A stretch of 64,000 nt of DNA from an uncultured delta proteobacterium (GTDB lineage Bacteria; Desulfobacterota; Binatia; UBA9968), in the NCBI GenBank assembly GCA_963745835.1, contig CAVUZH010000025.1, positions 143,070-207,069 on the forward strand, given 5' to 3'. The stretch's first letter is position 1. Each line of letters opens with the position of its first letter. The notes beneath the pieces are model-generated. The model made no database searches. It saw nothing but the letters and a program-made list of their open reading frames with translations, and was not told the origin of the DNA. The position numbers and the translations under genes were made by a program. Positions 16,780-50,515 of the stretch are shown here, one piece after another.

Positions 16780-18160
16780 TTGACCAGCACTTTCAAAAGT
16801 AAGACTATGCTCGTGGTAAGCCGATGTCAGTACCTGAGCTTTTTCGTAAGAAACACTACAACCGCTTCATCGAATCTCGACAGAGCTAATGTGGGCGAGG
16901 AGATGTACCGGTTTGTTACTGACCTGTTTCCGATTTGCCGAAGTATCACCGGTAAAGGCGCGCGTGAAACACTGGCGCTGATCCAAAAGCATGCGCCCCT
17001 GGACATTCACGAGATTCCCAGCGGAACCCGGGTTTTCGATTGGATCGTTCCCAAAGAATGGAATATCCGAGAGGCTTGGATTAAAGATCCGGCAGGGAAA
17101 AAAATCGTCGATTTCGGAAATTCTAACCTTCACGTGTTGAATTACAGCGCGCCGGTTCACGCCAGGTTATCGCTTAAGAATCTCAAAGAACATCTTTACT
17201 CGTTGCCGGAGCACCCTGATTGGATCCCGTATCGAACCTCTTACTACAACAACAACTGGGGGTTTTGCCTGTCCCACAATCAGCTCCTAGGCCTTTCGGA
17301 GGGTGAATACGAGGTATTTGTCGATTCCTCGCTCGAAGATGGGCATCTGACATTTGGAGAGTGTTATCTCCGGGGAGAAACGGAAGCCGAGGTCCTGATA
17401 TCGACGCATATCTGCCACCCGTCGCTGGCCAACGACAACCTTTCGGGCATCGCTGGTAGCAACTTTTCTAGCAAAATATTTGAGCAAGCTTTCATCGAGA
17501 TATTCTTACCGATTTCTTTTTATCCCGGGAACCATTGGCTCGATCACCTGGCTCAGCTTAAACGAATCTCAGCTGTCCCGAATCAAACACGGGCTGGTAC
17601 TGACATGTGTCGGGGACAGGGGAAAGTTTACGTATAAGAAAAGCAGGCAGCGGAATGCTGAGATCGATCGAGCGGTGTCCGAGGTTCTCAAAAAATCGGG
17701 TGAGGCTTTCGAAGTCCATGAATTTTCGCCTTACGGCTATGATGAAAGGCAATACTGTTCACCAGGGTTCAATCTTCCCGTCGGTTGCTTTATGAGAAGC
17801 CCCCACGCGCAATATTCGGAGTACCACACTTCTGCGGACAATTTGGATTTGGTTCGGCCAGAATATCTGGCCGATTCATTTTCGAAGTGCTTAGCCGTCT
17901 TTGAGGTTCTGGAGCACAACCGCGTCTATTGCAATCAGAATCCGAAATGCGAGCCGCAATTGGGGAGGAGAGGCATCTATAGTCAAATAGGCGGCCGGAC
18001 GGATGGTAAGACCCTGGAGTTGGCGTTGCTGTGGGTTTTGAATTTATCCGACGGAGAAAACAGTCTTCTAGACATTGCAGAAAAATCCAATCTAAATTTT
18101 TCTAGTGTCAGCAATGCAGCTCAAACGCTGCTAAAGACGGGCTTATTGCAGGAGGCGTAG
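16780..18160 (+). CDS. DUF4910-like peptidase-fold polysaccharide biosynthesis protein, frameshifted near 17455
   Basis: PICRSITG, IPYRTSYY, HICHPSLANDNLSG, then second frame GYDERQYCSPG, EYHTSAD, CEPQLGRRG; removing one G rejoins the frames. Confidence 0.85.
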
Positions 18161-18258: not shown

Positions 18259-18274
18259 TGGCACATCCGTTGCT
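18259..18274 (+). promoter_or_regulatory. sigma54 -24/-12 promoter
   Basis: TGGCAC-ATCCG-TTGCT, a consensus match just upstream of the PAS-SGNH gene. Confidence 0.75.
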
Positions 18275-23853: not shown

Positions 23854-23947
23854 ACGAGGCCAACGATTACTCGTTCGATTTGTTAAGACCGACTCTCGTC
23901 GCCGTCAAGCTTAGGTTACGGTGCGAGTATCGAGAAGGACTCTTAAA

Positions 23948-25954
<2,007 letters not shown>

Positions 25955-26189: not shown

Positions 26190-28115
26190 ATGTTGAAAGA
26201 AATCACCCTGAAATATCGGCGGATTCCGATTGTCGCTTTCCATATGGCTTTGATCGTTGTGGCCAATTACCTGGCCTTCTGGATCCGATTCGACGGCGCG
26301 ATTCCGGCTCACGAAAAGGAAATCATGCTGCGGATGATTCCCTGGTTGATGTTGATCCGCGGCCTGACCTTCGTGCCATTTCAGCTCTACAAAGGCTTAT
26401 GGCGCTATACGGGAATCTGGGACCTCCGCAATGTTATCGCCGGGGTGCTCGTGAGCACCGCATTGTTCTACATCACTGTTCATTGGATATTCACGGCCAA
26501 AAACTATCCTCTCTCGATCTTTATCATTGACTCTCTTCTGCTCATTTTTCTTATGGGCGGCAGCCGTTTGACCCGCCGTCTGGTTTACGGCATCGGCCAG
26601 GCAAAGGAAGGCCGGCGGCTGTTGATCTATGGCGCCGGAGACGCCGGAGAAATGATAGTTCGGGATATAAGGAACAATTCTTCTTTTTACGGTTACCAGC
26701 CCATCGGCTTTGTCGATGACGATTCGAAAAAGATCGGCCGCAGAATTCATGGTGTTCAGGTCTTCGGCAGGAGAGAAGATCTACCCCGGATTATCACAGA
26801 GGAAAAGCCCGACGAGCTTGTGATCGCCATCCCATCGGCCAAGCCGGTGATGGTTCGTGAAGTGGTCAAGATCCTCGAGCCGTTCAAGATTCCGATCAGG
26901 ACCCTTCCGCGAATTAGCGAACTGCGAAACGGCAACGTCGGCGTTAAGCAGATGCGCGACCTAGCCATTGAGGATTTGCTTGATCGAGCCCCGGTTGGTT
27001 TGGATCTCGAACCGGTGCGGACGTTAGTTAAGGGGAAGCGGATACTCGTCACAGGCGCGGGCGGCTCGATCGGTTCCGAGCTGAGCCGGCAGATTGCACG
27101 ATATCAACCGGCGCAGTTGGTTCTTCTAGACAATGGAGAAAGCGCTCTCTACGATATCAACACTGAGCTCGACCGCTCAGTGCAGCGCGTCGAGCGTGTG
27201 GCGGTCCTTGCCGATATCAGAGATGCACGAGCCATCGAAGAAATTTTTGCATCCCATGCTCCGCAAATTGTCTTTCACGCAGCAGCGTACAAACATGTGC
27301 CGATGATGGAAACCCATCCCAACGAAGCAGTCCTCAATAATGTGGTTGCAACCAATCGGCTGATGCGGTTTGCCATTCAATATCAAGTCGAAAGGTTCGT
27401 GCAGATTTCCACCGACAAGGCGGTCAATCCAACCAACGTGATGGGAGCTACTAAACGGGTCGCCGAAATGTGCATACAGGCTTTGGCAAAGAGCGAACAA
27501 AGCCAAACGATTTTCACCGCCGTTCGCTTTGGTAATGTGTTGGGCAGCAACGGCAGTGTGGTGCCCTTGTTTCTAAAGCAAATCGAACAAGGCGGGCCCG
27601 TAACCGTCACCGACCCCGAGATCAGCCGCTATTTCATGACGATCCCCGAAGCAGTATTGCTGGTGCTGCAAGCGGCGACACTAGCTAAAGGCGGCGACAT
27701 CTTCGTCCTGGAAATGGGTGAGCAGATCAAACTCATGGACATGGCGCGCCATCTCATTCGGCTGGCCGGCTTCGTTCCGGAAGAGGACATCCCAATTCAC
27801 CTCGTCGGTCTTCGACCCGGCGAAAAACTCCGTGAAGAGTTGGTCGGCATGGACGAGATGCTGATCCCTGCAGAGGTTCAAAAAATATTTCGGGTGCAAT
27901 CTGCGTGGCTTGCGGATCTGCGGTTTCTCACAGCCAAAATTGACGAAATGGAAGAGATGGCACTTAAAGGCCAGTCCCGGCGAGCTTTAGCATTGCTGTA
28001 CGAGACCGTACCGACTTTCCGGCCGGTGGATCCCAAGACTGCAAAGCAAATCCGTCATCAAGGAACAAACAAAGAACCGACCCGCGCTTGGAAATTCGCT
28101 AGCCGCTCGGCGTGA
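26190..28115 (+). CDS. Membrane-anchored UDP-GlcNAc 4,6-dehydratase (PglF/WbpM/CapD family)
   Basis: 4 [51 protein letters not shown]. Confidence 0.94.
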
Positions 28116-28309
28116 TTGATTGAAGCAATCATCACGGAATCGGAGCGCGCGCAGCGGATCACGAAAAGTGATGACGACCAGATCATTAGAATCGTTGTTC
28201 TTGCATCTCGCTGCCTGCTGAGAGATGAAAAGAGCAACAAGCTGGAACAGCGTGTCGTAGTGGCACCGCCGTGCCTCTCAATCGGGCGAAGTGATCATCG
28301 TAGGTTCTG

Positions 28310-28645
28310 ATGCCACGGCCAATAACCAGCTCAAAGCTCAGGGGGTTGCGTATGAAACGGCGGACGGGCGTTCAGAGCAGGCTGGTGGAAGGCGAAATGA
28401 TCGTTCTGGATAGAGAGCACGACTTGATCCATCAATTCAATAAAACTGCGACTTTCATTTGGGAACATTGCGATGGGCAACGGTCGGCCGCCGATATTGC
28501 GAATGCGGTTTGTGAAAGTTTTGAAGTCGATGAAGCCACGGCTACCAAGGAGGTCATTGAAACTCTCGAGAGGTTGCAAAATTTAGAGCTCATTGGAGAT
28601 GATCAGACAAACGACAAACCAGAAAGGAGAATTAATTATGTCTGA
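28310..28645 (+). CDS. Stand-alone PqqD-family RiPP recognition element (RRE)
   Basis: EGEMIVLD..IHQFNKTATFIWE.CDG..S..DIA..CESFEV...A..EV...LE.L...LI; alternative start ATG 28352. Confidence 0.88.
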   Translation: MPRPITSSKLRGLRMKRRTGVQSRLVEGEMIVLDREHDLIHQFNKTATFIWEHCDGQRSAADIANAVCESFEVDEATATKEVIETLERLQNLELIGDDQTNDKPERRINYV

Positions 28646-28823
28646 GGTTAAAATAAAGCGTAGAGAGTTCGTCAAAAGAGCGGCCTATGCGGCGCCGGTG
28701 ATCTTGACTCTTAAGGCTATGCCGGCATTTGCTGCTTCCGGTTCCGGCAGTCCCCGGAGCTCCAAAGGAGACCCTTCCGAGAAAAAGGCGACGAAAGCCC
28801 CAGCCAAGAATGAAGTTCAATAA
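28638..28823 (+). CDS. 61-aa putative RiPP-like precursor or secreted peptide
   Basis: Strong RBS AAAGGAG; overlaps the PqqD stop; KRREFVK, YAAPVILTL, AFA then Ser-rich SGSGSPRSS. Confidence 0.75.
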   Translation: MSEVKIKRREFVKRAAYAAPVILTLKAMPAFAASGSGSPRSSKGDPSEKKATKAPAKNEVQ

Positions 28824-28878
28824 AGAAGGCGCGCAAATGTGACGCTAGTTCCTCGCACCCTCGGCGCTCTATGATCCC

Positions 28879-29748
28879 GTGAACGATTGCCAGAAGCTAG
28901 TTTTCCGGATAGTAGGCTGCGTTGTGGAAATCGATTGCCGAGATCGGCCAGCCGCCGAGCTGATACGCGCCAACTATGCCGCCATGCAATCCCACCAGGG
29001 TGCCAAACCAGATCTCGAGTATGAGGTCTGGCGGCGCAATGGTTCACAATTTTGCGTAGCTCGGCAGGGGCGCGAGCCGATAACCGCGGCTGATGAAGGT
29101 GAGCTTCTTTTTATATTGGAAAAGGAGCTCACCATCGAACTACAAAAAATCCGCCGAGAACTGTATTTCCTTCACGCCGCCGCATTGAGCCTAGCAGGCC
29201 GGGGCTTGTTGATCGTGGCAGCCTCCGGTACCGGAAAATCGACGACTGCCTGGGCGCTGTTACATCACGGGTTCGATTACTTGAGTGACGAGCTAGCTCC
29301 CGTGGCTTTGGATTCTGTGCAGGTACAACCTTATCCACATGCGCTCTGCTTAAAAAGGGAGCCGCCGCTGCCGTACTCGCTGCCGGTGCGAAGCGTGCGC
29401 ACCTCATCAACTCTGCACGTGCCCGTCACGCAAATGCCGAATTCCGCTGTTTCGCAAACGATGCCGTTGAGTGCAATGTTCTTTCTTGAGTACTGCCCGG
29501 AATTGGAGATCCCGACCGCCCGTACGATCACTAAAGCTGAAGCGGCAGCGCGGTTGTTTGTGAATGCATTGAATCCCCTGGCTCATGAGCAAGACGGGCT
29601 CGCTGGTGCCGCAATCATAGCTCAGAGCGTTCCAGCTTTTCACCTTAAATCGGCAGAACTTGGTCTGACTTGTGAACTAGTGAAAGCGATTCTATCTGAA
29701 CTAGATGTTAACACACGCACGAATCCGTCCGATAATCACCGCTGTTAG
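28879..29748 (+). CDS. HPr-kinase-like serine kinase
   Basis: LHAAA, Walker A AASGTGKSTT, YLSDE. Confidence 0.85.
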   Translation: MNDCQKLVFRIVGCVVEIDCRDRPAAELIRANYAAMQSHQGAKPDLEYEVWRRNGSQFCVARQGREPITAADEGELLFILEKELTIELQKIRRELYFLHAAALSLAGRGLLIVAASGTGKSTTAWALLHHGFDYLSDELAPVALDSVQVQPYPHALCLKREPPLPYSLPVRSVRTSSTLHVPVTQMPNSAVSQTMPLSAMFFLEYCPELEIPTARTITKAEAAARLFVNALNPLAHEQDGLAGAAIIAQSVPAFHLKSAELGLTCELVKAILSELDVNTRTNPSDNHRC

Positions 29749-29779
29749 CATCGTCGGCTCTGGTTGATAGTCTCAGTTC

Positions 29780-30865
29780 ATGTCCAGCCGTCATCCGCAA
29801 CTGATCTTGCTCCTCGAGGCAATCTCGAGCAACCGGGAAGATCTGGCGCTCGATGAGTTCGACGCCATCACGGTTGCTTGGGCGATCCGAAACGGCCTCG
29901 GACCGTTGTTGTATCGCGCCGTGCGCCGAAACTCTCAAAGCTTGGCGAATTCTCACTGGAGTTCGCTCAAGGCGGCGGATCTGACCGCCCGGATTGTTAT
30001 TGGAGAACATTTTCAAGCGTTGCAAGAAATTGGCGATGCGTGCCGATCAAGTCTTCCTCCCTTGACGTTGCTGAAGGGCATTTCAATCAGTGAACAATGT
30101 TATCCCGAGCCGCATCTGCGGCTCATGCGCGACATAGATTTTTTGGCTGCAAAAGAATCACTGCCGGCTGTCACTGCTGCGCTGCATCAACTTGGCTATC
30201 GGCAGCTGTCAAATGGCGGAGTACGGTATGATAAGCATCATCACCTTGAACCATTTTTTCATCAAGACAAGCAGGTGTGGGTCGAGGTTCACCACGGCTT
30301 GTTCTCGGCCCAGCGCCGAGCCGGCAGCGCCAAGGTCTTTGGTCGGGAGAATCTCGCGGCGCAATCACGACCCTCTCGATTTCAAGGCATGGAGGTCCGC
30401 CGCTTGAGTCTAGAGCTGCAACTGGTTTACTTAGCCTCTCACTGGGCACAAGACTTCATCAGGATTGGCGGCGTGGTGGCACTCGCCGACACAATTTACT
30501 TGTTGAAGCACGCCGGGACCGACTTCCAATGGGAGTGGATCCTGAGAGCCGTCAATCGCTCAATTCCGGCAACGTATCTCTACCTGTTGCTCAGTTATAT
30601 GGTCCGTTATGATCTGGTCAAAGTTGCTCCAGAGGTCATGCGTGAGCTGGCATTCAGCCAGCCATCGTTCGGCAGCCTAGGCCTTAAGACGATGCATCGC
30701 ATGATCGATGACTATATCGTGAAAGCAACAGAGTTCGGGCCATTGTTGAGCGAACGGTCGGTAGGCATCATCTGGAAAACCTTGATGCTGCCTGGGCCAA
30801 CTCTGCCGAAGCTCGTATTGATTCCGCTAAATATTTCACTGCCTCAATATTGCCGCATTCAATAA
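29780..30865 (+). CDS. Uncharacterised nucleotidyltransferase (NTP_transf_5-like)
   Basis: LLKG, YPEPHLRLMRDIDFL (DxD), VEVHH. Confidence 0.85.
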   Translation: MSSRHPQLILLLEAISSNREDLALDEFDAITVAWAIRNGLGPLLYRAVRRNSQSLANSHWSSLKAADLTARIVIGEHFQALQEIGDACRSSLPPLTLLKGISISEQCYPEPHLRLMRDIDFLAAKESLPAVTAALHQLGYRQLSNGGVRYDKHHHLEPFFHQDKQVWVEVHHGLFSAQRRAGSAKVFGRENLAAQSRPSRFQGMEVRRLSLELQLVYLASHWAQDFIRIGGVVALADTIYLLKHAGTDFQWEWILRAVNRSIPATYLYLLLSYMVRYDLVKVAPEVMRELAFSQPSFGSLGLKTMHRMIDDYIVKATEFGPLLSERSVGIIWKTLMLPGPTLPKLVLIPLNISLPQYCRIQ

Positions 30866-30909
30866 TTTCTCAATTATTTAAAAAATCGTGTCGAAGGGGG
30901 AGAAGTTCT

Positions 30910-32274
30910 ATGAATTATGATGCAGAGGCTGCGATATCTTCCAAGGAGCAGCCAATCACTCATCGATCACAAATGGGCCGGGAGCTCAAGAAGAAGATTC
31001 GCGATCGTTCTGCTAAAGTGGGTGTCGTCGGTCTTGGATATGTCGGATTGCCTTTGGCTTTGGAGATGGCGCGGGCCGGGTTCGAAGTGACCGGTATCGA
31101 TCTCGTTAGGGATAGAGTCGATTCGATTAATTCCGGTATCTCCTATATTCCTGATGTGACTGGCGAAGCTTTGCTCTCGGCTGTTTCGGCCAACAGGCTG
31201 CGAGCAACTCAGTCGCTTTCGGCGGCGGAGAAAGTCGATACTCTAAATATTTGTGTGCCCACCCCGTTGCGCAAGAACAAGGATCCGGATCTTTCCTACG
31301 TCATCGCCGCAGTCGAGGCGATCCGGACTCACATACGGCCCGGCCAACTGATTATACTCGAGAGTACGACTTATCCGGGTACAACTCGGGAGGTGGTGTT
31401 GCCGATCCTCGAAGAATCGGGTCTCAACGTCGGGCGTGACTTTTTTCTCGCTTATTCTCCTGAACGGGTCGATCCCGGCAATCAGAATTATACTACCCGT
31501 AACATTCCCAAAGTAGTCGGCGGCGTGACTCCGAGATGCGCCGAGATAGCGGTTCTGCTTTATGAGCAATTCGTGGAGAAGGCGTTGCCGGTATCCTCCA
31601 CCGATTGCGCTGAAATGGTAAAGCTGTTGGAAAACACCTTTCGAAGCGTGAATATCGCTCTGGCCAATGAAATGGCTTTGACGTGCCATTCGCTGGGCAT
31701 CGATGTTTGGGAAGTTATCGAAGCGGCCAAGACCAAACCTTTCGGGTTCATGCCGTTTTACCCGGGCCCAGGATTAGGTGGCCATTGCATTCCGGTGGAT
31801 CCCTATTATTTGACATGGCGAGCCAAGATGAACGGCTGCGAGCCACGGCTGATTGAGTTGGCCGGACACATCAACAGCCAGATGCCGGGATTCACTGTAT
31901 TAAGCATCGCCGATGCGTTGAATGAGAGGCGTAAGTGTTTGCGAGGCGCCAAGATTCTCGGCTTGGGAGTCACCTACAAGCGTGATACCAACGATGTCCG
32001 GGAATCACCGGCCGTTCATGTGCTTGAAGCGCTGCGTAAAAAGGGCGCTTCGATCTGTTATTCTGATCCGCACGTGTCGTCAATATCGATTGCTGGTCAA
32101 ACGATCAACTCGGTAGAACTGACCGCTGAACTCCTGCAGTCAATGGACTGTGTTGCTGTTCTCACCGATCATTCCTCTTTCGATTACTCGCTGATTGCGC
32201 AACACAGTTCACTCATTTTCGACACCCGGAACGCGCTTAAAGACTTCCCTAGCGCTAACTCAGTTCTCTTGTAG
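30910..32274 (+). CDS. UDP-N-acetylhexosamine 6-dehydrogenase (WbpA/WecC-like)
   Basis: GLGYVGLP, CVPTP, ESTTYPG, SPER, KLLEN, GGHCIPVDP, D.RESP. Confidence 0.93.
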   Translation: MNYDAEAAISSKEQPITHRSQMGRELKKKIRDRSAKVGVVGLGYVGLPLALEMARAGFEVTGIDLVRDRVDSINSGISYIPDVTGEALLSAVSANRLRATQSLSAAEKVDTLNICVPTPLRKNKDPDLSYVIAAVEAIRTHIRPGQLIILESTTYPGTTREVVLPILEESGLNVGRDFFLAYSPERVDPGNQNYTTRNIPKVVGGVTPRCAEIAVLLYEQFVEKALPVSSTDCAEMVKLLENTFRSVNIALANEMALTCHSLGIDVWEVIEAAKTKPFGFMPFYPGPGLGGHCIPVDPYYLTWRAKMNGCEPRLIELAGHINSQMPGFTVLSIADALNERRKCLRGAKILGLGVTYKRDTNDVRESPAVHVLEALRKKGASICYSDPHVSSISIAGQTINSVELTAELLQSMDCVAVLTDHSSFDYSLIAQHSSLIFDTRNALKDFPSANSVLL

Positions 32275-34446: not shown

Positions 34447-35973
34447 ATGCCATTAGCAGAGATCGACAAATCTCGAACTGCCGGGTGGGCAGCTGGCTCG
34501 GGCAAATCGCTGGCCGGCAACTCACCAGTCCAGCCAAGCAGCGCCATCAGTTCTTTGATTCCCAATGTGCTGGTCGTCGACGATGATGCGACGATCCGCA
34601 GTCAGCTGGTTCGTCTGTATAGTCACAGCGGTTATACGGTGGTCCCGGTATCCTCGGCTGAAGAAGCACTGTCACAGCTTGCGCAAGGCAATATTGATTT
34701 CGTTATAACCGACATCAAGCTGCCGGGGTTGAGCGGCATTGACCTGATCGCCAACATGCAAGAGAACTTTCCCGATGTGCCGGTGATTGCGATCACCGGG
34801 TTCAAAGACATCGATACCGCGGTAAACGTGCTGAAGCATGGCGCAGCGGATTTTGTGGTCAAGCCGTTCGATCTGGGCACGGTACAGGAATCGACGCGTG
34901 TAGCACTGGAGAAGACCCGGGTCTACATGGAGATTCGCCATCTGCGTCGGGGTCTTAAGAACGGCTCTGAGTTTGGCGGCATGCTCAGCAAAACGGCCGA
35001 GATGCATCGGATGTTCGAAATCATCCGCATGGTAGCGCCCACCGAGATGACGGTCTCCATCGAAGGAGAAACCGGCACCGGTAAGGAGTTAGTGGCCAGC
35101 GCGGTTCACTATCATAGCGGGCGGCGCGAAAAACCGTTTGTCACGATTAACTGCGCCGGTTTTCCCGAATCCCTGCTCGAGAGCGAGCTTTTTGGATACG
35201 AACGAGGCGCCTTTACCGGCGCAGTACAAGCCAAGGCAGGAAAGATTGAGCTAGCCCACGGCGGCACCTTGTTTCTCGATGAGATCGAGAGCATCTCAGT
35301 GGTCATGCAGGGCAAATTGCTCCGGGTGTTGGAAGATCAGAAGGTTCAGCGGCTCGGTGGCAGCGCCGATATTCACGTTGACATGCGGGTGATCACGGCC
35401 ACCAATGTGCCGCTCAAGCAGCTTGTCGCCGAAGGCAAAATGCGCTCGGATTTTTATTATCGGGTCAATGTCATCCCGATCCACCTGATCCCGTTACAGC
35501 AGAGAAAGGTGGATATTCCTCTATTGGTTCAGGATTTTCTCCATCGTCATCCGGTGGCCGCGGGCAAGGGGATCACCTCGATTTCCAAGCAAGCGATGCG
35601 TCGGCTGTTGGACTATTCCTGGCCGGGCAACATTCGCGAACTGCAAAATGTTCTCGAGCGCGCCATCGTTCTCAACACCGGCAGAACCATCGAACATGTC
35701 GATCTACCGGAAGTCAGCTTTGAGGCGCATCCAAGCAGGGGCGGCAACGCCTTTAACGCCCCGCTCAACCAATGGCTGCAGGAAAAAGAAAAGGAGTATC
35801 TGGCGCAAAAACTCGATGATTTCGGCGGCAACGTCGGACTCACCGCAAAGAGCTGCCGGATCGGCGTGCGCACCCTTTCTCGTAAGATGCGCGCTTACGG
35901 CCTCGATAAAAAGCTGTTCAAACAAAAAAGCGACCTCGCAAAAGCTATCCTACCCAAGACAGGCCAGGCCTGA
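34447..35973 (+). CDS. sigma54-dependent response regulator (REC-AAA+-Fis HTH)
   Basis: VLVVDDD..TDIKLP; GETGTGKE, ESELFG, GAFTGA, WPGNIREL, C-terminal HTH. Confidence 0.95.
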   Translation: MPLAEIDKSRTAGWAAGSGKSLAGNSPVQPSSAISSLIPNVLVVDDDATIRSQLVRLYSHSGYTVVPVSSAEEALSQLAQGNIDFVITDIKLPGLSGIDLIANMQENFPDVPVIAITGFKDIDTAVNVLKHGAADFVVKPFDLGTVQESTRVALEKTRVYMEIRHLRRGLKNGSEFGGMLSKTAEMHRMFEIIRMVAPTEMTVSIEGETGTGKELVASAVHYHSGRREKPFVTINCAGFPESLLESELFGYERGAFTGAVQAKAGKIELAHGGTLFLDEIESISVVMQGKLLRVLEDQKVQRLGGSADIHVDMRVITATNVPLKQLVAEGKMRSDFYYRVNVIPIHLIPLQQRKVDIPLLVQDFLHRHPVAAGKGITSISKQAMRRLLDYSWPGNIRELQNVLERAIVLNTGRTIEHVDLPEVSFEAHPSRGGNAFNAPLNQWLQEKEKEYLAQKLDDFGGNVGLTAKSCRIGVRTLSRKMRAYGLDKKLFKQKSDLAKAILPKTGQA

Positions 35974-36390: not shown

Positions 36391-37251
36391 ATGACAGAAC
36401 AGCAGTCGAAAGTGGCTCAACTTCTAAGAAAAAATGAACGAGATGTTTTACAGCAGTGGTTGTCGTACCAGATCTCCGCGACAACGATGCGAGCCGATTT
36501 GATCAAAGAGAGCGATTTGCGCGAGGAATCGCGGCGGTTTCTGCAACTCTTTAACGAGGTCGTGCAACAGAACGGGGATGACGAAAATGCCGGCTCCTGG
36601 AAATCGGTCAAAGACATGCTCCGCGAAGTATCGCGCAGCCGCGTTGTCCAAGGTTTCAGTCCGTCTGAAACCGCCACGTTCATTTTTTCGCTCAAGCAGC
36701 CGATCTTCGATATGTTGCGGCGCGAGATACGCGATGTTGACGAACTGTGCCGCGAGATCTGGGCGGCCACGGCTCTGCTCGACAAGCTCGGACTGTACAC
36801 CACGGAAGCCTACCTGCAGAGCCGCGAGTCAATCATCTCGCGCCAGCAGCAAGAATTGATGGAGCTATCCACTCCTGTGGTCCAGCTCTGGGACAATGTC
36901 CTCGCACTGCCACTAATCGGTACACTCGACAGCGAACGCACTCAAGTGGTGATGGAGAACTTGCTCGAGAAAGTAGTCGAGACCGGCGCAAAGATAGCGA
37001 TCATCGATATCACCGGCGTTCCCACTGTGGACACACTGGTTGCGCAACATCTACTCAAGACAGTCGCCGCCGCCCGGCTCATGGGAGCCGATTGCATCAT
37101 CAGCGGCATTCGTCCGCAGATCGCTCAGACCATCGTTCACCTGGGCATCAACCTGGCCGATATCATCACTAAAGCGACCTTAGCCGATGCATTCGCCATT
37201 GCCCTGCAGCGGACCGGAGCCAAGGTGACGCGCCTGAGCGGCAAAGAGTGA
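36391..37251 (+). CDS. rsbR: Stressosome sensor RsbR (RsbRD_N + STAS)
   Basis: QGFSPSETATF, ELSTPV, GTLDSER, PTVDTLVAQHL. Confidence 0.93.
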   Translation: MTEQQSKVAQLLRKNERDVLQQWLSYQISATTMRADLIKESDLREESRRFLQLFNEVVQQNGDDENAGSWKSVKDMLREVSRSRVVQGFSPSETATFIFSLKQPIFDMLRREIRDVDELCREIWAATALLDKLGLYTTEAYLQSRESIISRQQQELMELSTPVVQLWDNVLALPLIGTLDSERTQVVMENLLEKVVETGAKIAIIDITGVPTVDTLVAQHLLKTVAAARLMGADCIISGIRPQIAQTIVHLGINLADIITKATLADAFAIALQRTGAKVTRLSGKE

Positions 37252-37259
37252 GGTAATTG

Positions 37260-37649
37260 ATGGAACGGATTCCAATCCTGAAAATGGGCCGCTTTCTACT
37301 CGTGACTATTCAGGTGGACATGCACGATCGCTTGGCAATGACGCTTCAAGAGGACTTGACCGATCGTATCGTCAAAGACCACGCGCACGGGGTGTTGCTC
37401 GATATTTCCTCCTTGGAAATCGTCGACTCCTTTATCGGCCGCATGATCGGTCACATTGCCGGCGTCTCTCGCGTGCTCGATGCCAAAACCGTGGTGGTGG
37501 GAATGAGACCTGCCGTCGCCATCACGCTGGTAGAATTGGGCATGACCCTCGATGGAGTGAGCACCGCGCTGAATGTCGATACCGGTATGGCGATGTTGAA
37601 CGCCTCGCTGGAAGAGAGGGAACAACTTAATGGTGGTTCTCAAGGATGA
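37260..37649 (+). CDS. rsbS: Stressosome antagonist RsbS (STAS)
   Basis: IPILK, IVDSFIGR (phospho-Ser), GMRPAVAITLVELG. Confidence 0.93.
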   Translation: MERIPILKMGRFLLVTIQVDMHDRLAMTLQEDLTDRIVKDHAHGVLLDISSLEIVDSFIGRMIGHIAGVSRVLDAKTVVVGMRPAVAITLVELGMTLDGVSTALNVDTGMAMLNASLEEREQLNGGSQG

Positions 37650-38040
37650 GACTGCTTCAATCCGGAGTTCTGACGACATCGTCAAGGTACGCCGGATTGT
37701 CCGAGAGTGGGCGGTATCGCTGGGGTTCAGCTTAGTGGATCAGACCAAGGTCGTTACGGCAGCCAGTGAGTTGGCGCGTAATGTCATCGATTACGGTGGC
37801 GGTGGCGACTTTCGGATCGAGGCGCTCAACAATCATGCCCGGCGCGGACTGCGGCTGACGTTTTCTGATGAAGGACCGGGTATTGTTGATCTGGAACAGG
37901 CAATGAAGGACGGGTTTACCACCGGTGGAGGGTTGGGTCTCGGGCTCGGCGGCGCCAAGCGGTTGGTAAACGAATTCCTAATCGATTCGAAACCAGGGCG
38001 AGGCACTACCGTGGTGATTGTCCGCTGGAAGAATCTATGA
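37630..38040 (+). CDS. rsbT: Stressosome Ser/Thr kinase RsbT
   Basis: TAASELARN, DEGPGI, DGFTTGGGLGLGL.GAKRL. Confidence 0.93.
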   Translation: MVVLKDETASIRSSDDIVKVRRIVREWAVSLGFSLVDQTKVVTAASELARNVIDYGGGGDFRIEALNNHARRGLRLTFSDEGPGIVDLEQAMKDGFTTGGGLGLGLGGAKRLVNEFLIDSKPGRGTTVVIVRWKNL

Positions 38041-39065
38041 TCCCTGTTTGGGAAAGGCAGAAGACTTTTGAAATAAGTGAGCCAAGCCACGTCGCCGAGG
38101 CGCGGCGCTTTACCAAGAGGATGGCCGAAGACGCGGGCTTCAACGAATCTCAAGCCGGCGGCGTCGCGCTCGTCACCACGGAATTGGCAACCAACCTGCT
38201 GAAGCACGCCAGCAGCGGTGAGATCGTCGTCCGACCCATCGTTGAGCGGGGCATCGCGGGGGTGGAACTACTAGCTCTCGACAAAGGCTCGGGAATCGCG
38301 AATGTTGCTGAATCTTTCCGTGATGGCTATTCGACTGCTGGGACTGCGGGCACGGGTCTTGGTGCCATCGCCCGGGTGGCTGCCGAATTCGACGTTCAAA
38401 CGCAGCCAGGGAAGGGTACCGCCGTGATGGCCCGGCTCTGGGGTGGCAAGATTGGCGAGGCGTCTGAAAATCACATTGCGATTGGCGCGATTTGTAAGCC
38501 GATGCCCGGCGAGACGCGTTGCGGTGATGGATGGGGCTGCGAGCTCCTCGCAGATCGGTGCATTTTGGTGCTGGTCGACGGCTTGGGCCACGGAACGGGT
38601 GCTGCGGCCGCAGCCGAACTGGCCGTTGCCAGCGTGCGCCAGCACCGCGCCAAAGCTCCGGCGGCAATCGTTCAATACGCTCACGACGCGCTACGCGCCA
38701 CGCGCGGCGCGGCTCTCGCCGTGGCTGAGGTCGATTTGGCTCAGCAATCGCTGCGTTTTTGCGGCATAGGAAACATTTCCGCCACTATCATTTCTGGAGA
38801 CAGCCTGCGCCATCTAGTTTCTTACAACGGCACTGCTGGTCACGAAGCGCGCAAGATTGTCGAGTTCACCTATCCATGGAGTGCAAACGCGCTGTTGATC
38901 ATGCACTCTGACGGACTGATGACGCGCTGGAATCTGCAGGCCTATCCTGGGTTGCTTCAGCGTCATCCAAGCCTTATCGCCGGTGTCCTTTATCGGGATT
39001 TTGGCCGCGGCCGCGATGACGTCACTGTACTAACCGCCAAATGCCCTAGCGTGAGTACTGAGTAG
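38037..39065 (+). CDS. HATPase + SpoIIE/PP2C phosphatase (RsbX-like)
   Basis: ELATNLLKH, DKGSG, GTGLG; CGDG, DGLGHG, HSDGL, RDDVT. Confidence 0.88.
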   Translation: MIPVWERQKTFEISEPSHVAEARRFTKRMAEDAGFNESQAGGVALVTTELATNLLKHASSGEIVVRPIVERGIAGVELLALDKGSGIANVAESFRDGYSTAGTAGTGLGAIARVAAEFDVQTQPGKGTAVMARLWGGKIGEASENHIAIGAICKPMPGETRCGDGWGCELLADRCILVLVDGLGHGTGAAAAAELAVASVRQHRAKAPAAIVQYAHDALRATRGAALAVAEVDLAQQSLRFCGIGNISATIISGDSLRHLVSYNGTAGHEARKIVEFTYPWSANALLIMHSDGLMTRWNLQAYPGLLQRHPSLIAGVLYRDFGRGRDDVTVLTAKCPSVSTE

Positions 39066-39201
39066 AAATCAGCCATAAGCTGGACAATGATTCAGCCGCG
39101 ATCCGGCCGATAAATGTTCGAACACAGAGATCGTTTTACTTGAGGTCTTGTTTAGGAGTTGTGCTGAGAGCCGCATCAGAACGACAAACCAGGACCGCCC
39201 T

Positions 39202-41436
39202 ATGAGTTATTCGATCACCCACCTTAGCATCGAATACGAGCACGATGTTGTCTTAGTGCGCCAACGGGCGCGCGAGATCGCCGCATTGCTCGGCTTCGAT
39301 AATCAAGATCAGACGCGCGTTGCCACGGCAGTCTCCGAGCTGGCGCGCAACACTTTTGTTTATGCCGGCCGTGGCAGGGTGGATTTCGAGATTGAAGGGC
39401 GGACCGTGCCGCAGCTTTTCGTTATCCGGATTGGCGACAACGGTCCCGGTATCGCAAATCTTCAGGAAATTCTGGAAGGGCGTTATGTGTCGCGCACCGG
39501 AATGGGGATTGGGCTGATTGGGGTCCGGCGGCTGGTCGATCAATGCGAGATCCACAGTGATCCCAAAGAAGGAACCAAGATCGCTCTCCGAAAAATTATG
39601 CCGCGTCATGCGCCGCTGGTCACAACCGCGTCTCTGCGCAGTTTGGTCGATCACTTGTCCCAGCGGCAACCGCAGGGTCCGATGGAGGAAGTCCAACAGC
39701 AAAATCGGGAGCTGGTGCGCGCTTTAGCAGATTTGCGCGAGCGGCAAGATGAGTTGGCGCGGATCAATCGGGAACTTGAAGACACAAACCGCGGCGTGGT
39801 GGCGCTTTATGCCGAGTTAGATGAAAAGGCCAGTCACTTGCGTCGCGCCGACGAAATGAAGTCACGCTTTCTTTCCAACATGAGTCACGAATTTCGCACG
39901 CCGCTCAATTCGATCTTGGCATTATCGGGATTGTTGCTGGAGCGCGCCGACGGGGAACTAACCAGCGAACAAGACAAACAAGTCGACTTCATCCGAAAGG
40001 GCGCGGAGACTCTGCTGGAGTTGGTAAACGATCTATTGGATTTGGCAAAAATCGAGGCCGGCAAGGTCGAGGTCCAGCCGGTCGACTTCGAAGTGTCCAA
40101 TCTTTTCAGCGCGCTCCGCGGCATGCTGCGTCCGCTCCTGGTGACTCAGAGCGTTGGCCTGGTTTTCGAAGATCCCGGGGAGATTCCTTGTTTATACACC
40201 GACGAAGGCAAGCTGTCGCAAATCTTGCGCAATTTTATTTCAAATGCGCTGAAGTTCACGGAACAGGGTTTGATCTCGGTTGCAGCAACTTTCAATAAAA
40301 CGGATCAGACGGTGACATTTGCGGTCTCGGATACCGGCATGGGTATCCCGGCTGAGGACCAGTCGAAGATTTTTGAGGAATTTATCCAACTCGAAAATCC
40401 GGCACAACGAAAAATCAAGGGCACGGGTCTCGGGCTTCCCCTATGCTGCAAATTGGCTACACTGCTGAATGGAAAAATCGATCTGGTGAGTCAGATAGGG
40501 ATCGGTTCAACGTTTTCAGTGACAATTCCGCTTTATCATTCGCAGGTGCTTGAGAGCCAGACAGTTGGCGAAGCGAAACCGGCGGCTTTATGGGAAATCG
40601 ATGAAACACGCATTCCCGTTTTGGTTCTGGAGGACGCTCCAGAGACTCGCCTCCTCTATGAAAAGTTTCTTCGTCAATCTGCGTTTCAACAGATCTCGGC
40701 GAATAACCTGGGTGAGGCCCGCCGAATACTACAGCAGGTTCGGCCGCGCGCCATCATTATGGATATTCTTCTACGCGGTGAAGACTCGTGGAGCTGGTTG
40801 GCCGAGCTCAAGGCGGAGAGCGCGACGCGGGACATCCCGGTGCTGGTTATCACCAGTGTCGACGACGAACGCAAGGGCCTATCCCTAGGCGCCGATGCGT
40901 ACTGCCTGAAGCCGATCGGGCGCGAAACCTTGATCGGGCACCTTCATGCTCTTACTGCTGCAAGTGCTGAAATCCCGGGAGCAGAACAAGCGCTCCAACA
41001 CGGAAATGAGCAGCCCTGTATCTTGATCATCGACGACGAACCGGTGGACCGCTACATACTCGTGCGCCTTCTCGAGCAACAGCCATGCATCGTTGAGCAG
41101 GCGGCAAGCGGGTTGGAAGGTCTAAAAATCTTGCAAGAAATCAAACCGGATCTTATTTTTCTGGATCTCAACATGCCAGGTCTCTCAGGCTACGATGTTT
41201 TGAATCACATCAAGGCCCATCCGGCTACGCGCAATATTCCGGTGGCGGTGGTGACATCGGCCGAGCTTGACGGGCATCAGCGTCAAGAACTCAAAAAAAA
41301 GGCCTTTGCGCTAATAAATAAGGTTGACCTCTCAGCCAAAGCCGTTGATGATTTGCTTGCGGCAGCGATGGCGCAGGCGGCCCTGCAGGCACGATTGGGC
41401 GAGATGCACAATTCCGAGGCTAGCGGCAACGGCTGA
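39202..41436 (+). CDS. Hybrid histidine kinase with N-terminal RsbT-like domain and two receiver domains
   Basis: TAVSELARN..DNGPG; ELEDTNRGVVALY coil; MSHEFRTPL, NALKFT, DTGMG, GTGLGL; two REC domains. Confidence 0.92.
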   Translation: MSYSITHLSIEYEHDVVLVRQRAREIAALLGFDNQDQTRVATAVSELARNTFVYAGRGRVDFEIEGRTVPQLFVIRIGDNGPGIANLQEILEGRYVSRTGMGIGLIGVRRLVDQCEIHSDPKEGTKIALRKIMPRHAPLVTTASLRSLVDHLSQRQPQGPMEEVQQQNRELVRALADLRERQDELARINRELEDTNRGVVALYAELDEKASHLRRADEMKSRFLSNMSHEFRTPLNSILALSGLLLERADGELTSEQDKQVDFIRKGAETLLELVNDLLDLAKIEAGKVEVQPVDFEVSNLFSALRGMLRPLLVTQSVGLVFEDPGEIPCLYTDEGKLSQILRNFISNALKFTEQGLISVAATFNKTDQTVTFAVSDTGMGIPAEDQSKIFEEFIQLENPAQRKIKGTGLGLPLCCKLATLLNGKIDLVSQIGIGSTFSVTIPLYHSQVLESQTVGEAKPAALWEIDETRIPVLVLEDAPETRLLYEKFLRQSAFQQISANNLGEARRILQQVRPRAIIMDILLRGEDSWSWLAELKAESATRDIPVLVITSVDDERKGLSLGADAYCLKPIGRETLIGHLHALTAASAEIPGAEQALQHGNEQPCILIIDDEPVDRYILVRLLEQQPCIVEQAASGLEGLKILQEIKPDLIFLDLNMPGLSGYDVLNHIKAHPATRNIPVAVVTSAELDGHQRQELKKKAFALINKVDLSAKAVDDLLAAAMAQAALQARLGEMHNSEASGNG

Positions 41437-41477
41437 AATCGCATCGACCAGCAGAGTCGGCCGGATTCGCATGAGAG

Positions 41478-44400
41478 ATGCTCATGACTGAACCGTTGGC
41501 CCATACTATTGTCAATGTAGATGACGATGATGCCGGCCGTTATACCAAGAGCCGGATTCTTCGCCGCGCCGGCTATCGGGTGCTCGAAGCTTCAACCGGC
41601 GCAGATGGTCTTGGTTTAGTGGCCGAGGTAAAACCGCAGCTGCTCCTTCTGGAAGTGAACTTGCCGGATATGAGCGGGCTGGAGGTTTGCCGCATGCTTA
41701 AAGCCAACCCTTCAACATCCGACATTCTCGTTTTGCAGATTTCAGCTTCGCGGACTACGGCAGAAGACCGTGTGTTTGGCTTGGAAGGCGGAGCGGATGC
41801 TTACCTGACTGAGCCGCTGCAAGCAAATGAGCTGGTTGCAACCTCCCGCGCGCTGCTGCGCCTTTACAGCCGTGAACAAGAAAACCGAGAATTGCTGGCT
41901 GCCTTGCGCCGCAGCGAAGCGCAGTTTCGTGCCAGCTTCGAGCTGGCCGGCGTCGGCAAGACGCAAATCGACGCCTCGACGGGAAAATTCATTCGCGTCA
42001 ATAAATGTTTCTGTGAGCTGGTTGGTTATACCGAGTCAGAGCTGTTGGGCTTGGCGCCATCCGACCTGACTCACCCAGCCGATCGCCGCCGTGAAGACGA
42101 GTTAGTTGCCGCGTTATTGCGAGGCGAAACCGAGGATCTGGTCGGAGAAAAACGTCTGGTGCGCAAAGACGGCCGGATTCTCTGGGTCTCGATCAACGTC
42201 AAATTGATCCGCGATGTCACGGGCGCGCCGGAGCGGACAATTTCTGTCGTCGTCGACATCAGCGAGCGCAAGCGCGCTGAAGAGCGAGCGCGCCGGCAGA
42301 ACGAACGACTGACGTTGCTTGCGCAAGTCTCGGAGCGACTGCTTACCGCGCATGATTCCGCTGTGATGATCAGAGAAGTTTTCGAGACCGTGCGACAGCA
42401 CCTCGCATTGGATACCTACTTCAATTACCGGGTGGACAGTTCCGGTTCCGCCCTCGTGCTGGAGTCCCGCGGCGATGCAGACCCTGATGCATTGCCCGCC
42501 TCACAGCCGCTCGATATCAGCAAATCCCTCCATGAGGTTCCCGCCCATTTACGCCAGGAGGTCATCCGGAAAGCACTCAAGAAAGTCGATGATCAACAGG
42601 CGAAGTCTGCCCATGCGCGGGGCTTTTCCGCCTACGCCGGTCATCCTCTGCTGCTTGCCGAGCGCTTGATCGGCACACTATGTTTCGCGAGCAAGAGGCG
42701 CGACGATTTCGACAACGACGAAATCGACTTCATGCGCACGATTTGCCATTACGTGGCGATGGCGCAAGAGCGTTTGCGCCTCCTGGCGGAATCACAGCAG
42801 CAGGTGGAGCGGCTTGAGCAAAGTGAAAGCAGGCTCCGGCTGGCGGTGGACGGCGCCGGCATGGGAATCTGGGATGTAGATTTGCGAACCGACACTTTAG
42901 TCTGGAATCGGGAGCTGTATTCGCTGCTGGGATACGTTTCGGATGCCGGACCCGTGACCCGCCAGATGTGGCGCTCGCGTATTTATCCTGAGGATTTCGC
43001 CGGTGTCGCGCAAGCGATGGAGCGAGCTAAGTCGTCCCGATCCCTCTACTGTCTGGAACACCGGATCATACGGGCCGATAATGGCGAGATTCGCTGGCTG
43101 GCGCCGTTCGGCCGGTTTCTCTACGATGATGCGGGCGCGGCGGTTCGGTTTCTTGGCATCGTGTTTGACTTCACCGACCGGAAACGCGCTGAGGATGCCT
43201 TTCATGAGACTGCTGAGCGGCTTCGTTTAGCGCAGGTCAGCGCTCATCTTGGTATCTTCGACTGGAACGCGCGAACCAACGATTTAGCATGGACGCCCGA
43301 GCAAGAGATGGTCTATGGAGTGCCGGCTCGGGGCATGACCCGTTACGAGCACTGGCAAAAGCTGGTTCACCCGGAGGACCTTGCGCGAGTGGAGGCTGAG
43401 CGTGCTGAGGCCATTCGGCAGAGGCAGCCGTTCACTTTGGAATATCGCATTTTGCATCCTTCCGGAAAGATTCACTGGGTATCTTCCAAGGGCCAGGGTT
43501 GGTACGACGCCGCCGGCGAGCTAACTCGCGTCCTTGGCGTCAACATCGACATTACTGAAACCAAGCGAGCCGAAGAACAGCTGCGCCACCAGAAGCAACT
43601 GCTAGAGACAATTACAGATAATGCGCCATCGATGTTGTTTATGACCGATCCGATGGGACGCGTTACCTTTGCCAATCCGGCGGCAAGGCATTTGACTGGT
43701 TACGATGAGCAAGAGCTGATCGGCCAGATTCTGCATGAAAAAATTCATCACAGCCGGCCCGACGGCTCGCCTTACCCGATCAGCGATTGCCGACTTCATA
43801 ATGTGCTGCCGTTTGACGAAAGAATTACCGGTCACGAAGAGATGTTCGTGCGCAAGGACGGTACGTTTTTCTCTGTGCGTTGCGCCGCCAGCTCGATAAT
43901 TCAGGACGGCATGCCCGTCGGCACCGTAATCGAGGGCCAGGACATCACCAAAGAAAAGATAGCCGAGCGCGCGCTGCGGGACAGTGAAGAACGGCTGCGC
44001 ATGCTGTCCAACTATGTGCCGGTGTTCGTCTGGGCTTGCCGCGCCGACGGCTGGTGCTATTCGCTCAATGACCGCTGGTACGAGTATACCGGTTTTAAGC
44101 CGGAGCAGGCGCTCGGTGTCGGTTGGTTGGACGCGCTACATCCGGAAGATCGGGAGCAGGCGCTCTCGAAATGGGATCAGGCTGTCGCTCGAGGGGGCGG
44201 TTACGAGATGGAGTTGCGTTGCCGGCGTCATGATGGCGAATATCGCTGGTTTATCGCGAAAGCTCTTCCGGTTAAGGATGCGAGCGGCCTGATTACCGAT
44301 TGGTTCGGCACCAGCTTGGATATCCATGACCGCAAATCATGGGAACAGAGCCTCGCTCATCTTGCCGCCATCGTAACATCATCGCAGGACGCCGTCATCT

Positions 44401-49891: not shown

Positions 49892-49927
49892 ACAAAGGCT
49901 TCTCACCTCTCGGTGCGAAGCCTTTGT
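49892..49927 (+). terminator. Strong hairpin, probable intrinsic terminator
   Basis: ACAAAGGCTTC..CACC-TCTC-GGTG..GAAGCCTTTGT downstream of the beta-barrel gene. Confidence 0.6.
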
Positions 49928-50231
49928 GCGTTGTACACGAAGAGATTCGGTAAACTTTCACAGTCAGAAGACCCGTCTCAACTTCGCTGCCCGGACCTTC
50001 TTCCTGCTAAACCTCGGCAATTTTCGATCGAAGTTTGTTCAGCTAAGTGTGCCTCAAGCCTCGAGCATGATTCAGAATTGCGCCAAACAGCAACGCATAT
50101 TTGGAACCGTCCCACAACTGGGCTGTTTGACTTTTGCTTTGTTCTACTTTCAAGACGAGCGGCAATCCGCAGCTTAGTTTTTCTCGCGTTCGCACGAAGA
50201 TTGTTCAACCTCCAAGTAGAATTGCAGTCCG

Positions 50232-50247
50232 TGGCACATCCATTGCT
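50232..50247 (+). promoter_or_regulatory. sigma54 promoter
   Basis: TGGCAC-ATCCA-TTGCT, a consensus match. Confidence 0.75.
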
Positions 50248-50290
50248 GTTTGTACCTTTTGACATCGGGTGCAAACGAAAGGAAGGTTTG

Positions 50291-50515
50291 ATGAAAAATT
50301 ATTTACTATTACTGGCGTTATTGGGGCTAACACAATCGAGTTGTGCGTTTCTTGGTGGAGCAGCGACTGGAGCGGTGGCCGCGGGCGCGGGTTATGAGAT
50401 ACAGGCGAAACGGCAGATGGATCGCTTGGATGAAGATTTCCAAAAAAGAAGAATATCGCGCGAAGAGTATGAAGATCGCAAAAAGCAAATAGAAAGAGGA
50501 TCGATCATTTACTAG
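50291..50515 (+). CDS. Small lipoprotein (Gly/Ala-rich segment, SHOCT-like tail)
   Basis: MKNYLLLLALLGLTQSSC lipobox; RBS AAGGAAGG. Confidence 0.75.
   Translation: MKNYLLLLALLGLTQSSCAFLGGAATGAVAAGAGYEIQAKRQMDRLDEDFQKRRISREEYEDRKKQIERGSIIY

Follow-up and report, generated by a model that had tools for sequence, protein, structure and literature searches.

A candidate LPP-type peptide modification cassette with a signal-shaped leader in a Binatia genome

Described systems and the four-gene cassette

The linear polyphosphorylated peptides (LPP) of Bacillota, encoded by lppA-K-B-S-D-N clusters, are the described system that comes closest to the cassette reported here (Popov et al., Nat Commun, May 2026, PMC13381572). 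According to the part of that paper available to us, LPP precursors have a leader of the form YxxPxVLxHQxIxFETxxS and C termini that vary, the kinase places several phosphates on core Ser3, just after the leader, and capsule loci often harbour the clusters. The authors describe LPP as restricted to Bacillota, and the final product and role were still not established as of 2026 (PMC13381572). The cassette lies in a 64-kb stretch of DNA from an uncultured soil bacterium labelled Binatia (contig CAVUZH010000025.1, positions 143,070 to 207,069), referred to below as the window, and consists of genes for a PqqD-type RiPP (peptide synthesized ribosomally and then modified post-translationally) recognition element (RRE), a 61-aa peptide, an HprK-like kinase and a nucleotidyltransferase.

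Two further systems share part of this composition. Phosphorylated lasso peptides (paeninodin with PadeK, pseudomycoidin with PsmK/PsmN; PMC8498205), in the accessible portion of the source, resemble the cassette in their lasso-type B1 RRE and leader motif, in the phosphorylation of a precursor Ser by an HprK-like kinase ahead of further processing, and in a nucleotidyltransferase, PsmN, that decorates the phosphate; in pseudomycoidin, PsmN adds hexoses to it. The HPr-rel-A system (NCBIfam TIGR04352 kinase and TIGR04353 PqqD) likewise has a PqqD-family protein adjoining an HprK-related kinase, and it provides the best-scoring curated kinase family. However, the window kinase reached 60.7 bits against a cut-off of 200 and the window PqqD 20.8 against a cut-off of 35; on these scores the cassette is a sister group of HPr-rel-A, not a member.

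We consider it reasonably probable, though far from assured, that the cassette is an LPP-type ribosomal-peptide modification module whose leader has the shape of an export signal. The initial annotation of the window had regarded it as an orphan and undescribed system. As a kind it is neither, since the LPP of Bacillota, as far as the available text of PMC13381572 describes them, have the same enzyme set and logic. What looks undescribed is the variant, with its signal-shaped leader, its lack of a dedicated peptidase or exporter and its occurrence in several phyla outside Bacillota; a literature search found no report of this signal-leader, non-Bacillota variant.

All four open reading frames (ORFs) are intact and co-oriented and lie between a PglF-type dehydratase gene and a nucleotide-sugar dehydrogenase gene, as had been claimed initially. 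The features are as follows.

28352..28645, plus strand: stand-alone PqqD-type RRE, 97 aa (PF05402, E 3.6e-16)
28638..28823, plus strand: precursor peptide, 61 aa (ribosome-binding site, start/stop overlap, family profile)
28879..29748, plus strand: HprK/PEPCK-fold P-loop kinase, 289 aa, putative peptide Ser kinase with an LppK/PadeK-like role (TIGR04352, 60.7 bits; fold match)
29780..30865, plus strand: NTP_transf_5 nucleotidyltransferase-fold enzyme, 361 aa, with a putative LppN/PsmN-like role (PF14907, E 1.4e-33)
26190..28115, plus strand: PglF-type membrane UDP-sugar 4,6-dehydratase, upstream context (PF02719, E 2.9e-116)
30850..32274, plus strand: nucleotide-sugar dehydrogenase, downstream context (TIGR03026, E 1.1e-134)

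The peptide family, its enzymes and their recurrence

The peptide gene starts at ATG 28638, with AAAGGAG 7 nt upstream, and overlaps the PqqD stop codon as ATGTCTGA, so that the overlap and the strong ribosome-binding site reported earlier were both confirmed. Residues 1–32 form a head resembling a twin-arginine translocation (Tat) signal, with KRREFVKR, YAAPVIL and AFA, while a variable, hydrophilic tail begins at residue 37. When 1.84 billion representative proteins were searched exhaustively with HMMER, the family comprised 378 clusters at 50% identity (E ≤ 1e-3), almost all of them 45–110 aa in length. In 131 aligned members, picked by likeness to the window peptide, the head had the consensus SRRxFxKKAAYxAPxILTLxAxPAFAxxGSG, and the tail behind it contained no conserved column.

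Within this alignment, R9, Y17, P20 and S36 were invariant (131/131), and G35 was present in 130 members. All 131 carried YxxPx[IVLM], and the distance from Tyr to Ser was 19 in 125 of them. The initial annotation had assumed that the peptide is conserved and has a YxxPxL-type leader motif, and both assumptions were upheld, the latter in the form YxxPx[IV]L in all aligned relatives. It had also named a Ser in the SGSGSPRSS stretch as the kinase target; the invariant S36 within SGSGS, together with the LPP precedent, makes this residue the obvious candidate.

The tails had a median length of about 33 residues after GS (127 of 150 sequences) and were rich in G, R, K, S, P and D. A block of the form SKGDPS[DE]KKATKAPAK was kept in close relatives (65–98% identity, 66 sequences aligned) and replaced in distant ones, which suggests that tails are under constraint inside a lineage and vary freely from one lineage to another, in the manner of RiPP cores. 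No curated family in NCBIfam or Pfam matched the peptide at E ≤ 0.01, and the public name of family members was “hypothetical protein” in most named cases. Two relatives of 60–62 aa (P0178 and P0179) are publicly named “phosphodiesterase/alkaline phosphatase D-like protein”, which is probably an annotation carried over from a match to the Tat signal.

A search with the family profile revealed no other copy of the peptide in its own genome, and in the same phylum the family was rare and patchy, with a match in 3 of 401 sampled genomes including this one. The same phylum sample contained two divergent variants (L036, G144:C38; L037, G385:C40), one of which lacks GS, has an extended hydrophobic stretch and a tail made up of RG and EK repeats, and still adjoins PqqD and an HprK-like kinase. 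The peptide gene was found to be spanned by contigs, 95–99% alike, from four soil RNA-seq libraries of four studies. Two of them (X16 and X18) bridge the RRE and peptide genes and one (X17) the peptide and kinase genes; relative to the window they show a synonymous change in S34 as well as S38N, with S36 kept.

The conserved part of the head, which the initial annotation had passed over in this respect, is shaped like a twin-arginine signal peptide with an AxA site. Position by position among the 131 members, residue 7 was Ser or Thr in 104, residue 8 Arg in 114 and Lys in 17, residue 9 Arg in all, residue 11 Phe in 104, residue 12 Ile, Val or Leu in 127, and residue 13 Lys in 120. A hydrophobic stretch of 17 residues and then P-[AS]-F-A follow this motif. 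The relaxed motif RRx[hydrophobic][LIVM][KR] was present in 108 members, the full [ST]RRxF[LIV]K in 56, and a small-x-small site before xxGS in 126; the window peptide has the Tat form, with K-R-R-E-F-V-K and A-F-A. The genome contains two tatC genes, which establishes that the pathway exists and nothing beyond that.

The RRE gene probably starts at ATG 28352, 6 nt downstream of GGGGG; the longest ORF begins at ATG 28310. A profile built from 41 relatives matched the lasso B1 proteins TbiB1 (2e-18) and TfuB1 (3.3e-15), followed by PbaB1 (9x90, 8.6e-12) and LppB (9x8z, 1.8e-9), the identity of 9x8z as LppB (chain 9x8z_B) having been checked in PMC13381572. The structure prediction of the RRE with its peptide, proposed by the initial annotation, was run with peptide residues 1–45 and supported binding weakly, with a score of 0.49 and 0.02 for the best control. 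Of 157 solved complexes, 116 reached the mark applied, as did 2 of 215 mismatched pairs; at scores of 0.60 or below, only 18 of the 157 and both of the mismatched pairs did so. Contacts agreed by at least 88% between runs, and the partner had a pLDDT (predicted local distance difference test) of at least 56. Because RRE–leader complexes have already been solved, the pass may reflect likeness only.

The best curated match of the kinase was TIGR04352 (HprK_rel_A), at the score given above, and Hpr_kinase_C was matched as well. Applied to the kinases of 11 relatives, TIGR04352 gave 59–78 bits for 10 full-length proteins and 20.5 bits for a truncated ORF from Campylobacterota (L094). The motifs L98-H99-A100, G117-T-G-K-S-T122 and S136-D-E138 are present as reported earlier and were conserved in 27 relatives (H99 in 26, K120 in 26, S121 in 27 and D137 in 26). 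The structural model, with a pLDDT of 94.6, matched PEPCK (E 2e-8, template modelling (TM) score 0.60–0.64) and HprK/P (1kkl, E 2.4e-6) in a fold search.

The previously noted nucleotidyltransferase motifs LKG and RxMxDID were likewise found (K99-G100 and R114-x-M-x-D118-I-D120), and K99, G100, R114, D118 and D120 were invariant in 27 sequences. The fold search with its model (pLDDT 92.3) returned weak, generic Pol-beta-type matches only, namely MenT1 (best E 3.8e-4), TM1012, LnuA and ANT(2''), with TM scores of 0.29–0.39 by query length, so the donor used by the enzyme cannot be deduced from them. In one locus, a PqqD::nucleotidyltransferase fusion of 532 aa was observed (L063:11109-12707), and its domain composition appears to tie the nucleotidyltransferase to a peptide substrate. 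Besides the fusion, the surrounding region in this Vicinamibacterales metagenome-assembled genome (MAG; L063:8696-12707) encodes the kinase and a divergent PqqD that stands alone, and its three peptide genes lie in tandem or close by.

Close orthologues of the kinase (E ≤ 3e-27) were found in 6 of 60 related genomes (G003, G005, G012, G021, G024 and G028, with G012 an unpublished genome). In these six, tblastn located matches to the RRE, peptide, kinase and nucleotidyltransferase in the same order, on two contigs each in G021 and G012; the contig of G028 starts inside the kinase gene, leaving the RRE and peptide out of view, and that of G003 stops within the RRE. The dehydrogenase gene stands directly 3' of the cassette in five of the six. 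The PglF-type dehydratase lies upstream in the relatives L028 and L032, and not in L027 and L033.

A wider scan with a 15-row peptide alignment against one genome per species (185,579 species) yielded 59 loci, which were scored with RRE, kinase and nucleotidyltransferase profiles built in this analysis. They come from MAGs labelled Binatia, Gammaproteobacteria and Betaproteobacteria, Planctomycetes, Acidobacteria, Campylobacterota and others. An RRE gene was found beside the peptide gene in 45 loci, a kinase gene beside it in 40 and a nucleotidyltransferase gene within 5 kb in 30; RRE and kinase occurred together in 39 loci and all three enzymes in 28, several of the misses being contig ends. 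Where both flanks extended for at least 5 kb (35 loci), the corresponding values were 27 for RRE and kinase, 19 for all three and 8 for none. Seven of the 59 loci contain two or three peptide genes. Because the order is the same in related genomes and the RRE–peptide–kinase core recurs across phyla, the four-gene arrangement, judged by gene order, is not due to chance.

Clustering of 741 neighbouring ORFs, all against all, revealed no blast cluster beyond the cassette enzymes that was common to more than 7 of the 59 loci, and the dehydrogenase (blast cluster 23) was present in two. Pfam was then applied to 207 neighbour ORFs, comprising one representative per blast cluster and an extra Asn-synthase-like member (L071:6199-8145), at strict thresholds (130 ORFs at E ≤ 1e-8 and 77 at E ≤ 1e-10). 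Housekeeping genes, such as those for citrate synthase, tRNA synthetases, MurJ, ribF, fumarase and PNPase, made up most of the neighbours; glycan genes turned up at a minority of the loci. Thus, the neighbourhood analysis suggested initially bore out the co-occurrence of peptide homologues with RRE, kinase and nucleotidyltransferase and the absence of the lasso B2 protease, and not the company of glycan genes, which was mostly limited to this lineage.

Comparison with LPP, proposed mechanism and alternatives

Like the LPP system, as far as the available text of PMC13381572 describes it, the cassette has an RRE, a kinase and a nucleotidyltransferase of the same logic, and both precursors combine a conserved N-terminal part carrying YxxPx[VI]L with a C-terminal part that is hypervariable. 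A few residues past the end of either leader comes a conserved Ser, with a Phe five residues before it (F31 and S36 here, FETxxS in LPP). Both involve cleavage of the signal-peptidase-I kind, which is predicted for the cassette, and both often occur in polysaccharide loci. LPP has a discrete RRE, LppB; the cassette RRE matches PF05402, and its profile recognizes 9x8z_B at the E-value given above, lower in rank than TbiB1. The kinase, with its HprK/PEPCK fold and P-loop, is a putative counterpart of LppK, and the PF14907 enzyme may likewise correspond to LppN.

In contrast to LPP, the cassette has no SpI-like (SipW-type) LppS, and no S24/S26 peptidase was found in the 46 window ORFs (of 57 ORFs of at least 90 aa) covered by the domain scan or in the 207 neighbour ORFs scanned. 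An MsbA-like LppD is also absent beside the cassette in the window, and an exporter with ABC_membrane and ABC_tran was present in one related locus only (L047). The leader has a twin-arginine/AxA form instead of the HQxIxFET of LPP, which is absent here, and the Tyr-to-Ser spacing is 19 compared with 18 counted from the printed LPP motif. The hosts also differ, with MAGs labelled Binatia, Proteobacteria, Planctomycetes, Acidobacteria and Campylobacterota on one side and, by the account of that paper, Bacillota on the other. A search of the text of PMC13381572 did not find the words Tat, twin-arginine, Proteobacteria or Gram-negative. Since neither peptidase nor exporter was found, the RRE is nearer to lasso B1 proteins and no LppA match was obtained, we regard the cassette as one that appears to work like LPP by sequence and analogy, and do not place it as an established member.

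From the observed genes, their conservation and their co-occurrence, we infer a course of modification in which each chemical step is conditional. The PqqD/RRE protein would bind YxxPx[IV]L in the head of the 61-aa peptide, as RRE precedent suggests and the complex prediction weakly supports. In the cytoplasm, the HprK-like kinase would use ATP to phosphorylate the invariant Ser36, perhaps repeatedly, by analogy with LppK and PadeK. The PF14907 enzyme may then add a sugar or a nucleotide-derived group to the Ser36 phosphate, as PsmN does, and in this lineage the donor may come from the flanking sugar-nucleotide genes. Finally, the modified peptide would leave the cytoplasm through the general Tat (or Sec) machinery, with signal peptidase I cutting after AFA; this is proposed because no dedicated peptidase or exporter is encoded and the head has the twin-arginine form. 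The outcome would be a short charged peptide outside the cytoplasm, decorated near its new N-terminus (Ser at +4).

Tat exports substrates already matured in the cytoplasm. The signal reading of the head is attractive because it would explain the missing peptidase and exporter and is compatible with this property of the pathway. The resemblance extends to the chaperones that bind Tat signals (TorD, DmsD and NapD): the head shows S/T-R-R-x-F-x-K, a short hydrophobic stretch and a basic residue before AxA, and a small cytoplasmic protein is predicted to bind it before export. Unlike in those cases, the passenger is a disordered tail of the length given above and the chaperone would be the RRE; in addition, the window peptide fails the Pfam Tat models, and its export is a prediction from sequence. 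It is conceivable, though we lean against it, that the head is both a RiPP leader and a working Tat signal, that the RRE holds the signal as a proofreading chaperone until Ser36 is decorated, and that general Tat and signal peptidase I replace the dedicated exporter and leader peptidase. If so, this would be the first modified-peptide family matured through the Tat pathway, and many phyla would release a short, charged phospho-(glyco)peptide as its product to the periplasm or cell surface.

Several observations weigh against an LPP-type module with an export-signal leader. Lasso B1 proteins outscored LppB in the RRE profile search, the kinase falls far under the cut-off of its nearest curated family, and the peptide profile found no LppA leader chain in the PDB sequence set, so that homology of the leaders is not established. 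The peptide stands alone in 8 of the 35 well-flanked loci; of five genomes with a stand-alone peptide, two carry a complete module with its own peptide elsewhere, and in the other three, whose completeness is uncertain, a kinase of this family was not found. The window peptide matched no Tat-signal model at E ≤ 1, and its relatives were matched only weakly (PF10518 in 8 of 131, best E 0.021; PF10399 in 25 of 131, best E 0.0014). The RRE, moreover, would bind what is at the same time the signal's hydrophobic core. The RNA-library contigs may hold DNA and stem from close relatives, not from this strain. In the available text on LPP, the NTP transferase had no detectable activity in a heterologous host (PMC13381572).

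Part of this evidence would also suit an ordinary small Tat-exported protein, with PqqD as its signal-binding chaperone and with a kinase and nucleotidyltransferase that act on a sugar, a lipid or another protein. The Tat-like form of the head, the stand-alone loci, the three genomes in which no kinase of this family was found and the two public records with a phosphatase-like name all point in this direction. However, a plain signal peptide leaves unexplained why Ser36 and Gly35, on the far side of the predicted cleavage site, show no or almost no variation, the kinase gene follows the peptide gene in 40 of 59 loci, and the PqqD::nucleotidyltransferase fusion exists; the two “orphan” genomes with a full module elsewhere indicate that extra copies can be served in trans. 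We therefore consider this explanation unlikely. A glycan primer or anchor, as proposed in the initial annotation, in which the phospho-Ser of a membrane-held peptide would be the acceptor for the polysaccharide of a Wzm/Wzt-type locus, is less likely still. A glycan locus does surround the cassette, encoding Wzt_C at 10-771 along with numerous sugar-nucleotide enzymes, the dehydrogenase follows the cassette in five of six related genomes, LPP and paeninodin clusters are often in capsule loci according to the available text of PMC13381572, and glycan genes were seen at L047 (Poly_export), L094 (GNVR, WecG and GT1), L095 (ManC and CpsB), L063 (GT4) and L083 (Wzy_C). Nevertheless, the related genomes are kin, so their common gene order is weak evidence, most other loci have housekeeping neighbours, no glycosyltransferase family is common across loci, and an anchor has no need of hypervariable tails. 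The proposal was thus not sustained, sugar genes being kept beside the cassette only in this lineage.

A decayed lasso cluster of the paeninodin or pseudomycoidin type, having lost B2 and cyclase and retaining non-functional tailoring genes, is the least probable explanation and in our view a very remote one. It would account for the RRE profile being closest to lasso B1 proteins and for a kinase and a PF14907 enzyme that are known lasso tailoring enzymes, in the accessible portion of PMC8498205. An Asn_synthase-like gene was found near the cassette in at most two related loci, adjacent in L067 (weak, E 3.4e-9) and as a true AsnB with GATase domains about 3 kb away in L071. Against this stand four intact genes with conserved motifs, the recurrence of the cassette in several phyla, and the absence of any further blast cluster shared by more than 7 of the 59 loci. 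Transglut_core3 (B2, PF13471) was found neither in the 46 window ORFs scanned nor in the 207 neighbour ORFs, even the whole genome giving only one marginal match, on another contig (25.8 bits), and no Asn_synthase was detected in the same 46 window ORFs. A lasso core starts with Gly, Ala, Ser or Cys and carries Asp or Glu at positions 7–9. After AFA the window peptide reads ASGSGSPRSSKGD..., with no Asp or Glu at positions 7–9 of the putative core and the first acidic residue at position 13; the conserved Ser, moreover, lies near the core start, compared with the C-terminus in phosphorylated lasso peptides as described in the accessible source. Because no lasso B2 protease or S24/S26 peptidase was found in the 207 neighbour ORFs scanned, the cassette, judged by gene content, is not a decayed lasso cluster. 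The initial claim of a non-lasso, RRE-dependent peptide system without B2 and cyclase thus held, both being absent from homologous loci apart from the Asn_synthase-like genes of L067 and L071.

An LPP-type module with a signal-shaped leader would widen the LPP family greatly, as a relative in many non-Bacillota phyla in which the dedicated peptidase and exporter have apparently been swapped for that leader. For reconstitution it would provide a simple version of three genes (those for RRE, peptide and kinase), and it raises a testable link between RiPP leader recognition and control of Tat export. The sugar-nucleotide genes conserved beside the cassette in this lineage are candidate suppliers of the donor for the PF14907 enzyme, the dehydrogenase at 30850-32274 being a possible example.

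Surroundings of the cassette

The surrounding window is a surface-glycan locus, with Wzt_C at 10-771, an aminotransferase and many sugar-nucleotide enzymes, followed by regulators. Between 27900 and 31200, the counts of predicted sigma-70 promoters and terminators were not above those of shuffled sequences, and the same search placed none between the peptide and kinase genes. A sigma-54 promoter upstream of the RRE gene was considered and rejected: the sole match, at 28261-28276, has two mismatches, and the window contains 28 such matches compared with 30 expected by chance. Two perfect matches to the sigma-54 consensus TGGCAC-N5-TTGCW occur elsewhere in the window, at 18259-18274, just 5' of a gene for a 649-aa PAS/AlgX-like protein (18305), and at 50232-50247, in or near the ORF 49913-50515. 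A gene for a sigma-54 activator is located at 34447-35973.

Three genes of the window are broken: gmd over three frames (23921-24616, 24480-24773 and 24806-24982), fcl (24996-25703, 25612-25893 and 25757-25954) and a DUF4910 gene (16780-17637 and 17480-18160). Orthologues of gmd (344–345 aa) and fcl (316–320 aa) are whole in the relatives L028 and L032, and the broken genes represent either assembly indel errors or recent pseudogenes. Kinase genes broken in the same manner were observed in several long-read MAG loci.

A second, much larger glycan-type locus is present in the same genome (G000:C3:904000-942700; L099 and L100). No member of the 61-aa peptide family was found in it. It contains a 153-aa PqqD with a C-terminal extension, two HprK-like paralogues and three PF14907 genes, one of them broken, together with two radical-SAM/SPASM proteins, two full asparagine synthases and about ten glycosyltransferases.

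Further downstream in the window, a stressosome-like set was observed at 36391-47084, comprising RsbRD_N+STAS and STAS proteins, an RsbT-like HATPase and a HATPase+SpoIIE phosphatase. Next come a hybrid histidine kinase of 762 aa and a PAS/GAF hybrid kinase of 1868 aa with three receiver domains.

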